A stretch of DNA of 27,357 bases from a virus (Duplodnaviria; Caudoviricetes). The notes below the pieces were generated by a model. The model saw only the letters and a program-made list of their open reading frames with translations, did not search any database and had not been told where the DNA came from. This document shows, one piece after another, positions 21,926 through 27,357 of the stretch (its first letter is position 1; each line of letters starts with the position of its first letter). A program made the position numbers and the translations under genes. The stretch spans positions 1 to 27,357 of IMG/VR virus record IMGVR_UViG_3300017653_000009; one strand, 5' to 3'.

Positions 21926-22063
21926 ATGGATTGGTACGCAATTGTAAAACGTCATTACGATGCAGGTCGCTACAATAACGAAAATGTAGCGACCTTTGTT
22001 GTTGGCAACAAAATCACAACCGGGCAGTATGAAACGATTACCGGGGAGGCATATGGAGGATGA
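21926..22063 (+). CDS. xkdX: XkdX family protein (45 aa)
   Basis: MDWYAIVKRHYDAGRYNNENVATFVVGNKITTGQYETITGEAY; AAGGGGGTG RBS. Not in the ORF track. Confidence 0.88.
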   Translation: MDWYAIVKRHYDAGRYNNENVATFVVGNKITTGQYETITGEAYGG

Positions 22064-23070
22064 ATGAAAAGGAATTAGTTTACTGCCGCGTCGATCAATG
22101 GCGAGCTGCTGGCTATACTGGAAAAGGCATAAAGGTTGCCGTCCACGAGGTGGCGGGGACAACAGTACGAAACCTTCCTAGATATGCTGGGAAGGTTTTT
22201 GATGTTCATGGAGGCCGTTTCGGAAGCAACAATGATACCCATATGCAGGGCGTTATCGATTACATCCTAGCAGTCGCACCCGATGTCGAGATCTATCTGC
22301 TTAGCGGCACAGTGCCGCAAAACCTACAGTATTGCATTGACAACGGCATCGATCTCTACAATTACTCGCAGGATGGTGGATGGTACAATTCAACCGATAA
22401 TGCGCTCGAGGCTGCGGCCATGGCAGCCGGCACGGTGTTTGTTTGCTCGGCTGGTAACAGCGGCTCGGCTGGCCTCAGTACACAATCCCGTAAGCCTAAC
22501 TGGATAAGCGTAGCTGCTGCCAAGTGGATGCTGTGGCAGGGCGTCGAGGGGCCGCAATGGTGCAGCTACTCCTCTTATGACGCTTACGGCGATCATCTCG
22601 ATACTGTTGGCTTTAGCGATGGGGTGATGATTCCTTCCGAGAGTAGCGGCGGTTTTAGATCCGATAGCGGCACATCGTTTGCGTTACCTTGGGTTGTAGG
22701 GTTACTAGCTTTGTACAAGCAGCGTTTTTATGAGCAGCACAAGCGTAAGCCGTCATTTGATGAGGTATTTAATTTCGTCAAGGATAACTCGGAGGATATG
22801 GAAGCGCCTGGGTACGACCAGCGGACAGGCTGGGGGCTGCTGCGGCTGCCTGAGATTACTGTAGAGCCTGTTAAGCCTGCTGGCGATATCTTGGAGCTTT
22901 GGATTGGCTCGTCAGTCGCGAAGCGTAACGGCGTGCCTGTAGCCTTGCAAGCACCTCCAATTTTGTCCCAGTGGCGAACACTAGTGAGCGTACGGGATAT
23001 AGGGGAGCTTTTTGGTTGCTCGGTTGATTGGAATCAAGATGAGAAAAAGATAACGATAATCAAGGGGTGA
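22060..23070 (+). CDS. S8 (subtilisin-like) serine protease with C-terminal copper-amine-oxidase-N/stalk-like domain
   Basis: GYTGKGIKVAV, SAGN, SGTSFALP and GYD..TGWG motifs; C-terminal APPI..RTLVSVR-IGE-FG-SVDW..ITI. Confidence 0.88.
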   Translation: MNEKELVYCRVDQWRAAGYTGKGIKVAVHEVAGTTVRNLPRYAGKVFDVHGGRFGSNNDTHMQGVIDYILAVAPDVEIYLLSGTVPQNLQYCIDNGIDLYNYSQDGGWYNSTDNALEAAAMAAGTVFVCSAGNSGSAGLSTQSRKPNWISVAAAKWMLWQGVEGPQWCSYSSYDAYGDHLDTVGFSDGVMIPSESSGGFRSDSGTSFALPWVVGLLALYKQRFYEQHKRKPSFDEVFNFVKDNSEDMEAPGYDQRTGWGLLRLPEITVEPVKPAGDILELWIGSSVAKRNGVPVALQAPPILSQWRTLVSVRDIGELFGCSVDWNQDEKKITIIKG

Positions 23071-24341: not shown

Positions 24342-24380
24342 AAGCCCACTGGCCTGATGGTCGGTGGGCTTTATTTGTTT
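24342..24380 (+). terminator. Intrinsic terminator ending the late operon
   Basis: AAGCCCACTGGCC/GGTCGGTGGGCTT stem followed by TATTTGTTT. Confidence 0.85.
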
Positions 24381-26083: not shown

Positions 26084-26127
26084 TTGAAATAAGAACGCTA
26101 GTTCTTATATAATGAGAACAAATGCTC
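26084..26127 (+). promoter_or_regulatory. SigA promoter with two LexA (DinR) boxes
   Basis: TTGAAA-18-TATAAT; GAAC-GCTA-GTTC (26093-26104) and GAAC-AAAT-GCTC (26116-26127) fit the Firmicute GAAC-N4-GTTC box. Confidence 0.85.
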
Positions 26128-26146
26128 TTATTAAGGAGTGGGTAAA

Positions 26147-26416
26147 ATGTTAAAAAATAATAATCGGTTGGACGATAATGCTCGGAGAGTTTTACGAATG
26201 CTGTTTGACTTATATAGAGCCGAAGCGAATAGGCTTGATGTTGATCGGCTTATGAGATTATCAGGAAAGTCAAAAGATATGATAATGCCGGCGATCGAGC
26301 AATTGCTCGAGAAAAGGTATATTATTTGGGATCGTGAGAGCGGAGTAATGCAGGTCTTAATGGTTGATGTTCCAGTCTACCGCTGCCTAAAGAATGCTGG
26401 AGTCATTGCAGTATAA
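26147..26416 (+). CDS. Putative SOS-inducible winged-helix protein
   Basis: AAGGAG RBS; RLMRLSGKS..IEQLLEKRYIIWD wHTH-like pattern. Start is 26138 or 26147. Confidence 0.7.
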   Translation: MLKNNNRLDDNARRVLRMLFDLYRAEANRLDVDRLMRLSGKSKDMIMPAIEQLLEKRYIIWDRESGVMQVLMVDVPVYRCLKNAGVIAV

Positions 26417-26493: not shown

Positions 26494-26558
26494 CCGCGAC
26501 GCTCTCCTAACAAGGGGAGCGTTTCGGCCTGCCCCGCAGCAGGCCATCGTCAGGCGGG
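26494..26558 (-). ncRNA. Type I hammerhead ribozyme
   Basis: Minus strand reads CCGC-CUGACGA-U-GGCCUGC(ugcggg)GCAGGCC-GAAA-CGCUCCCCU(uguu)AGGAGAGCG-UC-GCGG. Full core and three stems; predicted cleavage between 26498 and 26497. Confidence 0.88.
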
Positions 26559-26645
26559 TTATAGTTTAGCGATGGTCACGATTAGGGCAACAACACTGAT
26601 AATCAGAGCAGTCAGGCTAAACCAATACGCAAGTTTCAGTTTCAT
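26559..26645 (-). CDS. Small hydrophobic peptide (28 aa, MKLKLAYWFSLTALIISVVALIVTIAKL), type I toxin-like
   Basis: AGGGTGAAGGA RBS before ATG; single TM helix flanked by Lys. Confidence 0.68.
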   Translation of the reverse strand: MKLKLAYWFSLTALIISVVALIVTIAKL

Positions 26646-26670
26646 ATCCTTCACCCTTTCGTGGTATAAT
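26641..26670 (+). promoter_or_regulatory. Antisense promoter (extended -10 TGGTATAAT)
   Basis: TTCATA-18-TATAAT with TG extension, pointing into the 3' end of the 26750-26863 peptide gene. Confidence 0.55.
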
Positions 26671-26749
26671 GTTGAGAAAGAAGAAGCGCACCCTTTGGAT
26701 TTATCGTGTGTGGGAGAGAAGCCACCTTGCGGTGACTTCCCCTTTGCGA

Positions 26750-26863
26750 TTACCACCCTCTGATAAGGGCGACGGCTGAGATGATCACGCTAGTGAGTGC
26801 AATCATTAGCATGATGTCGTCTCTCAGTTCGTCATCGCGTTTCTTCTTTCTCTTTTGTCTCAT
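26750..26863 (-). CDS. Small basic-then-hydrophobic peptide (37 aa, MRQKRKKKRDDELRDDIMLMIALTSVIISAVALIRGW), holin-like toxin candidate
   Basis: Perfect AAGGAGGTGA RBS, consensus promoter upstream. Not in the ORF track. Confidence 0.75.
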   Translation of the reverse strand: MRQKRKKKRDDELRDDIMLMIALTSVIISAVALIRGW

Positions 26864-26885: not shown

Positions 26886-26927
26886 ATTATACAACGAAAA
26901 TAGTTGAATGTCAACGAAAATAGTTGA
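26886..26927 (-). promoter_or_regulatory. Consensus SigA promoter overlapped by two identical operators
   Basis: Minus strand TTGACA-17-TATAAT with TG (26914-26886). CAACGAAAATAGTTGA occurs at 26892-26907 and 26912-26927, each a CAAC-N7-GTTG palindrome. Confidence 0.88.
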
Positions 26928-26970
26928 TTGTTTTTGTATTTTGGTGTATATTTTTATTGAGGTGATATGC

Positions 26971-27183
26971 GTGCTTAAACTAAAACTGGATAAATTAATG
27001 TCCGAAAAGCAGTACAACACACGTCAGCTTAGTGAATTGACTGGAATCAGATGGAACACTATTGATGATATGGCTAAGAATAAAGCGAAACACTGGTCTG
27101 TGGAAAATCTCGAGAAGATTATGCAGGTACTTGAGATCAAGGACATTAATTTATTGATTGAAAATGAAGGCTCAGAGGAATAA
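26971..27183 (+). CDS. Xre/Cro-like HTH transcriptional regulator
   Basis: GAGGTGA RBS, GTG start; LKLDKLM..RQLSELTGIRWNTI..LEKIMQVL..LL pattern; divergent from the operator pair. Confidence 0.88.
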   Translation: MLKLKLDKLMSEKQYNTRQLSELTGIRWNTIDDMAKNKAKHWSVENLEKIMQVLEIKDINLLIENEGSEE

Positions 27184-27203: not shown

Positions 27204-27247
27204 TTGAATGAAGAACATACGTTTGGTTATAATAAGAACAAATGTTC
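27204..27247 (+). promoter_or_regulatory. SigA promoter with two LexA boxes
   Basis: TTGAAT-18-TATAAT; GAAC-ATAC-GTTT (27213-27224) and GAAC-AAAT-GTTC (27236-27247). Confidence 0.85.
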
Positions 27248-27265: not shown

Positions 27266-27357
27266 ATGCAGGAGTACGTTGGCAAAGTCGTGCAGCTTAT
27301 CTATATCGACCGGAAGCGCGAGGTCAGCATAAGGGATGTGCGAGTCATATCGGTTAA
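27266..27357 (+). CDS. SOS-inducible small protein (YolD/WYL-like), truncated by the window edge
   Basis: GAGGCGGTG RBS; MQEYVGKVVQLIYIDRKREVSIRDVRVISV... Confidence 0.65.
   Translation, partial: MQEYVGKVVQLIYIDRKREVSIRDVRVISV

Follow-up and report, generated by a model that had tools for sequence, protein, structure and literature searches.

A type I hammerhead motif behind a phage peptide operon and the conserved hairpin, UACAUA block and boxA-like tail that follow it

What hammerheads do in bacteria and phages is, according to PMC6155905, an open question, and one short element of the viral DNA analysed here, a stretch of 27,357 nt referred to as the window, raises it in a concrete form: is the structure that abuts the stop codon of a 28-aa peptide ORF a hammerhead and, if so, what would become of the RNA on either side of its cut? 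A preliminary description had placed a ribozyme at 26494..26558, had called the peptide toxin-like, and had proposed that self-cleavage sets the 3' end or stability of the mRNA under the control of the terminating ribosome. Since the closest named relatives of the cassette described below (Paenibacillus, Cohnella, Gorillibacterium, Sporomusa and Desulfosporosinus) are Bacillota, the window is presumed to derive from a temperate phage of Bacillota.

Anatomy of the hammerhead and of its relatives

The window holds a real and intact type I hammerhead motif on its minus strand (Table 1). The complete core (CUGACGA, GAAA and GUC), the 4-bp stem I, the 7-bp stem II, the stem III of about 10 bp with one mismatch, the extra U after the CUGANGA box and the start one nucleotide past the TAA had all been described beforehand, and each was found in its place, with sequence and MFE fold agreeing on the stems. 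The extent initially given to the element does contain the hammerhead, but is too short, as conserved parts continue to about 26434.

Table 1. Positions of the peptide operon, the hammerhead and its downstream tail in the window
Feature	Position	Strand	Basis or remark
SigA-type (sigma-70) consensus promoter	26914-26886	minus	12/12 match, 17-nt spacer
37-aa peptide ORF	26750..26863	minus	basic N-terminus, hydrophobic C-terminus
28-aa hydrophobic peptide ORF	26559..26645	minus	TAA 1 nt before stem I; sequence, hydropathy
TAA of the 28-aa ORF, then single spacer C	26561-26559	minus	sequence
Hammerhead ribozyme, type I	26557-26494	minus	core and three stems by sequence, MFE fold, descriptor, relatives
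Stem I (CCGC / GCGG)	26557-26554 / 26497-26494	minus	sequence
CUGACGA box; extra U after A9	26553-26547; 26546	minus	sequence
Stem II	26545-26539 / 26532-26526	minus	7 Watson-Crick pairs and closing U.G
Loop II GCGG, 5' pseudoknot partner	26537-26534	minus	complementary to tail CCGC 26488-26485
GAAA	26525-26522	minus	sequence
Stem III	26521-26513 / 26508-26500	minus	8 pairs, one C.A mismatch; 10 positions counting A15.1-U16.1
GUC; predicted cut	26500-26498; 26498/26497	minus	sequence
Stem I 3' strand and tail	26497-26485	minus	tail CCGC pairs with loop II or with the freed stem I strand
Second conserved hairpin, after YGAG, self-complementary UGCA apex	26479-26460	minus	covariation
Conserved block CCUUUACAUA	26460-26451	minus	alignment of relatives; partly fixed by search pattern
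rrn-type boxA (candidate) AUUGUUCUUUGACAAC	26449-26434	minus	10/13 to B. subtilis consensus; 15/16 to Cohnella 16S-leader motif

The three-way junction is the MFE structure of the 65-nt stretch (z -3.0), a stability equalled in 1/200 shuffles, and a descriptor combining core and stems found a single site in the window (26557-26494), with no match in 300 dinucleotide shuffles. CUGANGA, GAAA and NUH follow each other in order around this junction with stem I open, as defines type I. On the contrary, the Infernal check against Rfam that had been suggested for the element returned no hammerhead match, either at the gathering score or at E<=10, and Rfam scans of the region gave no other credible family. 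The identification therefore rests on the descriptor and on the relatives, and the Rfam miss is a gap of the library for this variant, not a failure of any class-defining feature. Cleavage of the predicted ribozyme between 26498 and 26497 is considered very probable. That such self-cleavage would set the 3' end of the mRNA is well supported by anatomy and conservation, while the toxin and ribosome-coupling parts of the initial interpretation proved weak.

Relatives were retrieved with a broad-family pattern made up of the core and the stem II ends alone, which gave at least 123 viral loci. Of the 116 distinct cores among the matches listed, counting that of the window, 97 possess both a stem I of at least 4 bp and a stem III of at least 2 bp, although the pattern contained neither stem, and 16 of the 116 show no full fold; stem sequences vary among relatives, with pairing retained. 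The C of the cleavage triplet, found in 99/100 cores among the matches listed, is the only free observation on that triplet because the script demanded its G and U. Thirteen loci (L011, L013, L019, L020, L028, L036, L038, L044, L073, L089, L108, L111 and L115) carry the core and stem II with no downstream stem I and, by eye, several of them could belong to type III, again with the extra U.

The extra U itself is a common variant. In the subfamily described in the next section, which was retrieved with a pattern blind to the core, it occurs in 29 of 53 cores, with nothing inserted in 15, a whole hairpin in 5, and 4 irregular or unparsed; the notion that it represents a defect was rejected on this count. 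Six subfamily loci (L145, L162, L176, L177, L187 and L190) display a small hairpin between CUGANGA and stem II and would be four-helix hammerheads. An extra core nucleotide has reportedly been the subject of a paper on a viroid hammerhead, and is said to lie at the same position.

A feature overlooked in the preliminary description is a predicted pseudoknot between loop II and the tail behind the cut, which covaries in relatives: at least four Watson-Crick pairs are available in 87 of 137 elements among the matches listed, as compared with 34 on average and no more than 47 when tails were exchanged 1000 times. This covariation agrees with the tertiary contact reported for prophage hammerheads by Perreault et al. 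2011 (PMC3088659), according to whom such pseudoknots are needed for fast cleavage. Those hammerheads also resemble the present ones in their core, three stems and stem I/stem II pseudoknot contact, in their intergenic position beside prophage genes, and in the role proposed for them, the processing of long phage transcripts. They differ in being clustered, while no second hammerhead was found in the flanks of the 57 subfamily loci, so that clustered ribozymes are rejected here; in addition, the present elements carry a U or a whole hairpin after A9, have no Rfam model match, and are followed by a conserved hairpin-UACAUA-boxA tail that goes unmentioned in the available text of that paper. Prophage hammerheads with pseudoknots being already known, the new part is this module downstream of the cut. 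A text search of the supplements of PMC3088659 gave no sequence match, although gapped alignments would escape it and members may be listed there. The literature search found no paper on a hammerhead-hairpin-boxA cassette in the sources covered, among which subscription journals were scarcely represented.

The conserved tail behind the cut

About ten relatives with shared sequence past the cut led to a tail pattern without the core, which matched 29 viral and 35 genomic loci; removal of 6 duplicates and 2 chance matches (L164 and L178) and addition of the window leaves 57 distinct loci, all from Bacillota where a host is named. An intact CUGANGA core lies upstream of the tail in 53/57, one further locus ends at a contig edge, and three have mutated cores.

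The first element of the tail appears to have two partners. Folding predicts that its CCGC would sit in the loop II pseudoknot as long as the RNA is uncut, and could afterwards pair with the freed stem I strand in a hairpin lying flush with the 5' end that the cut leaves. This flush hairpin occurs in 52/96 broad-family members among the matches listed, as compared with 34 on average and 46 at most in tail swaps, its presence in the subfamily being imposed by the search pattern. It is read mainly as a putative cap for the cut product. The second hairpin shows covariation, with 7 of its 8 pairs varying on both sides and 94.5% of cells paired; no shuffled or slid control comes near this pairing, though kinship may inflate the shuffle test. 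Its apex is a palindromic 4-mer in 55/57 loci. The hairpin might have been a DNA operator, but a count of 70 G.U against 14 A.C on the ribozyme strand disfavours this.

The block CCUUUACAUA contains the hexamer UACAUA (26456-26451), exact in 33/57 loci, window included, with six variants making up the other 24. A reading of UUUACA as a -35 box was discarded, since only one relative, on visual inspection, offered a -10 box at a distance of 17 nt. UACAUA is the exact hexamer of the B. subtilis MazF, EndoA (PMC11780869), MazF-family genes are present in 5/5 host genomes searched, and E. coli MazF attacks the boxA segment of rrn (PMC12541390). These observations open up a stress-gated relay, in which the hammerhead would create the capped 5' end, boxA would load the rRNA antitermination complex of the host and, once the host toxin is active, a cut by MazF at UACAUA would strip the hairpin cap and lead to collapse of the downstream RNA, often antisense to lysis genes; prophage transcription would then be tied to the host toxin-antitoxin state. 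The variants in 24/57 loci argue against a strict MazF site, and the hexamer shows no depletion in the flanks (197 occurrences vs 163 expected). Such a relay is regarded as quite unlikely. The E. coli system shares with the cassette a MazF-family site adjoining boxA, the phage hexamer differing in lying 1-4 nt upstream of boxA and in being exact in only part of the loci.

The last conserved element, nothing being conserved beyond it, resembles the boxA of rRNA leaders. Its family motif, (U/A)UG(U/C/A)UCUUUGAAAA, was absent from the search pattern, and a match of at least 10/13 to the B. subtilis consensus is reached in 35/57 loci, compared with 0-2/57 at seven control offsets and 0.6% of shuffles; in 34/35 parsed cases it starts 46-51 nt behind the cut. 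Matches are below 10/13 in the other 22 loci, and at 7 or below in 7 of these. The third position varies between U, C and A, as in host rrn copies. In three host genomes the motif occurs 8, 12 and 8 times, its reverse not at all; half of the 20 host copies that were fetched precede a 16S start by 87-123 nt, and Rfam rRNA adjoins 4 of 6 tested. The window's boxA differs from the Cohnella rRNA-leader copy at one position in 16; it shows C in place of the A of host copies. Host-matched boxA variants were not seen in the two Paenibacillaceae prophage/host pairs compared.

Considering that (i) NusB-family matches were found in 5/5 host genomes searched, (ii) B. subtilis NusB binds RNA of the boxA consensus (PMC13753749), and (iii) E. 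coli boxA is necessary and sufficient for NusB-S10 loading (PMC10250234), 26449-26434 is put forward as a candidate NusB site, an assignment judged somewhat probable. The T-rich block could alternatively be a NusG-dependent pause signal rather than a boxA, giving the ribozyme time to fold and cut. The NusG pause motif is TTNTTT in the non-template strand. It occurs within 22 nt of the block in 23/57 loci, window included, and B. subtilis NusG is a sequence-specific pausing factor (PMC13753749); nonetheless it is missing in 34/57, and the conserved G, the invariant C and the following GAAAA match boxA rather than a T-tract. A pause signal in place of boxA is thus held to be improbable.

Comparison with known boxA sites situates the module. 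The rrn leader antitermination site, a hairpin (boxB) followed by boxA that works with NusB-S10, NusA and NusG (PMC13753749, PMC10250234), resembles it in the boxA sequence, in the order hairpin then boxA, and in the distance of about 50 nt between boxA and the 5' end of an untranslated RNA. It differs in that its 5' end comes from a promoter, and here from a ribozyme, and in that no rRNA follows in the cassette; moreover, neither the UACAUA block nor the conserved sequence features of the cassette hairpin occur in those host rrn leaders that were fetched. Lambda nut sites (boxA-boxB, with N protein; PMC10250234) likewise combine a phage boxA and a hairpin, but in the cassette the hairpin comes before boxA.

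The tail is linked to hammerheads also when searched on its own. With a pattern of block plus boxA, 7/7 viral loci lay behind hammerheads, three of them new. A tail-only covariance model built from 47/57 loci gave 10 matches in 8 of 151 genomes, from the family of a Paenibacillus host, 8 of the 10 behind hammerheads and 5 of these 8 the same as, or near-identical to, training loci; since it matched only 8/151 genomes, the cassette is uncommon. Among 15 metagenome matches of the model, one is apparently the window itself, 9 have a hammerhead, one is incomplete and 4 look like chance. The two remaining genome matches (L219 and L220, at about 1500-1550) present a partial tail without hammerhead, comprising a hairpin remnant, UUUACAUA and boxA; they may be the remains of decayed cassettes, or else modules that stand alone. 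Among the matches listed, only 6/97 broad-family hammerheads are followed by a strong boxA match at up to 110 nt; the association is therefore a trait of the subfamily. In a blastn comparison, none of 50,697 phage records matched the cassette.

Upstream genes and the terminating ribosome

The promoter of Table 1 is likely to drive the two-peptide operon together with the ribozyme cassette. It is overlapped by two 20-nt direct repeats (26892-26931), each with an internal inverted repeat, which are likely operators for a divergent Cro/C1-type HTH gene at about 26974-27183. For the 37-aa peptide no family was found in Pfam, PHROGs or NCBIfam, and Atlas matches were to hypothetical proteins only, with scores up to 0.84; for the 28-aa peptide the same three collections held no significant match. 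Similar peptides occupy the slot of the 28-aa ORF in four loci (L135, L156, L158 and L181), homologues being drawn from cassette loci only. The genes upstream of hammerheads are unrelated to one another and, among the matches listed, short membrane peptides account for 6 of 115. In view of the missing family match, "toxin-like" is an unproven label for the 28-aa product.

A toxin reading might still be upheld as type I toxin-antitoxin control, the ribozyme tuning the stability of a membrane-toxin mRNA and the remainder being incidental. Two hydrophobic peptides are indeed encoded, and some few relatives have the pair in front of the cassette as well. The 37-aa unit, moreover, combines a 16-nt long-range pairing of 26674-26689 with 26837-26852, early codons against 3' UTR (z -5.9), with an antisense extended -10 promoter-like site on the plus strand (26641-26670), an arrangement that resembles type I toxin-antitoxin architecture and has similar counterparts at L135, L170, L181 and L187. 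These features, however, surround the 37-aa ORF and not the ORF that abuts the ribozyme, neither peptide matches a toxin family, and the scarcity of membrane peptides among upstream genes weighs in the same direction; this reading is deemed very improbable. By eye, the last genes upstream of the cassette resemble toxin-antitoxin genes of the HicB or HicA-HicB kind in four loci (L125, L136, L180 and L185).

Abutment to a stop codon is a family-wide property and not specific to toxins. Among the matches listed, 131 of the 140 elements examined have an identifiable upstream gene end, which lies 3-8 nt before the core in 51 and coincides with the core's own UGA, used as stop, in 34, making 85/131 that stop in either way. 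In 135 elements among the matches listed, frames open at the core are distributed 34:5:8 in favour of the core UGA, a bias also expected simply because genes cannot run across the cutting site. The footprint geometry of a ribosome with UAA in its A site is such that stem I would have its 5' strand covered. The tail could meanwhile pair with the 3' strand of stem I in a competing hairpin, slightly stabler in the window than the ribozyme fold (-36.8 vs -34.9 kcal/mol, the energy of the pseudoknot being uncounted), and trap an inactive fold, so that no cut would occur until translation lapses.

The geometry of the ribosome coupling claimed at the outset is thereby plausible, while its purpose is not borne out. 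The competing hairpin is no more frequent in near-stop elements (31/51) than in others (15/28) among the matches listed (Fisher p 0.64), which shows no association. Ordinary hairpins sit close to stops too: in a control gap one gene upstream, a stable hairpin was present in 14/25 loci, 9 of the 14 starting 4-9 nt past the stop. B. subtilis terminators lie a few nucleotides after stops because polymerase outruns ribosomes (PMC7858274), transcription and translation being uncoupled in Bacilli. With upstream genes that are unrelated, and the boxA tail left unexplained, gating of the cut by translation is considered unlikely.

Genomic setting and possible fate of the downstream RNA

The cassette spans 125 nt and is found in prophage-like loci of Paenibacillaceae, Sporomusaceae and relatives of Desulfosporosinus. 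In the window a family scan revealed holin and amidase genes near the ribozyme, and ORFs resembling terminase, capsid and tail genes are recognised by eye further left; the cassette lies beyond the lysis genes, in the cargo region, and is encoded on the other strand. Downstream, RNA from the cassette would be antisense to an HTH gene, a 343-aa membrane-protein gene and a DUF6941-like gene, and weak terminator-like sites only were found on the minus strand, at 24355 (before the amidase gene) and 23611 (within it). The boxA lies in intergenic sequence. Within 150 nt of the cassette a same-strand terminator was found in one of 57 loci and none in the other 56, while an opposite-strand terminator is present in 14/57. 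The next ORF of at least 60 aa is co-directional in 33/56 loci and convergent in 23/56. Holin or endolysin genes are among the first three downstream ORFs in 17/53 loci, convergent in all of them (150/159 ORFs scanned); cargo regions facing lysis genes are an ordinary prophage layout.

The reading preferred here, to which a probability of roughly one half is given, is that the ribozyme would cut the transcript where a short prophage operon ends, past its last gene, and that the boxA behind the cut would load NusB-S10 of the host, allowing polymerase to go on transcribing. Cleavage at 26498/26497 would take place during transcription, normally before the first ribosome arrives, freeing the peptide mRNA with stems II and III retained as its structured 3' end. 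On the other side of the cut the tail is predicted by folding to switch from the pseudoknot to the hairpin flush with the new 5'-OH end; re-ligation would thereby be prevented and RNase J1 slowed, the second hairpin contributing to both. If boxA works, the loading site lies after the cut and would therefore remain with the polymerase while the upstream RNA is severed, where it might form an rrn-like NusB-S10 complex shielding the untranslated RNA from Rho. In the window, the continuing RNA would run antisense over the three cargo genes, toward the lysis genes.

Several observations are consistent with this preferred scheme, namely the recovery of intact cores by a core-free pattern, the pseudoknot covariation, the boxA counts, the linkage of the tail to hammerheads and the lack of a same-strand terminator within 150 nt in 56/57 loci; in addition, RNase J1 acts on the 5'-OH product of the glmS ribozyme, and in B. 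subtilis cleavage products are stabilised by hairpins downstream (PMC11780869). The glmS case is alike in that self-cleavage in a Bacillota RNA exposes a 5'-OH product to RNase J1. It differs in that the present ribozyme is a hammerhead, has no ligand and would cut after the gene, and in that the cassette product appears built for protection whereas the glmS product is destroyed. Against the same scheme stand the weak boxA matches (22/57 loci), the C of the window's boxA, the two partial tails without hammerhead, the closeness of five linked model matches to training loci, the rarity of the cassette, and the UACAUA block and palindromic apex, neither of which boxA loading explains; besides, there is often no downstream gene to reach, because of the convergent next ORFs. 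According to PMC13753749, an rrn antitermination complex is not demonstrated in B. subtilis or other Gram-positives, and Rho is dispensable in B. subtilis.

An alternative end for the product would be release as a small structured RNA, made of the two hairpins, UACAUA and boxA, with a function in trans: it might be a decoy for NusB or MazF, a dimer self-paired through the palindromic hairpin, or an antisense RNA. The fixed spacing of 46-51 nt, the capped 5' end, the palindromic apex and the convergent holin/endolysin genes all fit such a molecule. Nonetheless, 56/57 loci lack a same-strand terminator that would set its 3' end, conservation stops at boxA, and the orientation toward lysis genes is no more than the usual prophage arrangement, so that a role in trans seems unlikely as well.

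Should boxA function as the preferred scheme supposes, temperate phages of Bacillota would use the host rRNA machinery without an N-like protein. The cassette links the question of hammerhead roles with rRNA-type antitermination in Gram-positives (PMC13753749), and is directly assayable in B. subtilis.

Some minor features of the surroundings were also recorded. GAAC-N4-GTTC palindromes, which we take to be LexA/DinR-type boxes, are present at 26093-26104 and 27236-27247, each with an adjacent near-match (0.32 expected by chance), and precede a convergent HTH gene (26138-26416) and a truncated ORF at 27266, respectively. No terminator was found after 26416, and an SOS-induced transcript would run antisense into the boxA tail and the ribozyme. 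Directly before the holin genes lies a 336-aa protease-like gene (22060-23070, PHROG protease match), and in the lysis module of one relative (L146) a subtilase is fused to an amidase domain.
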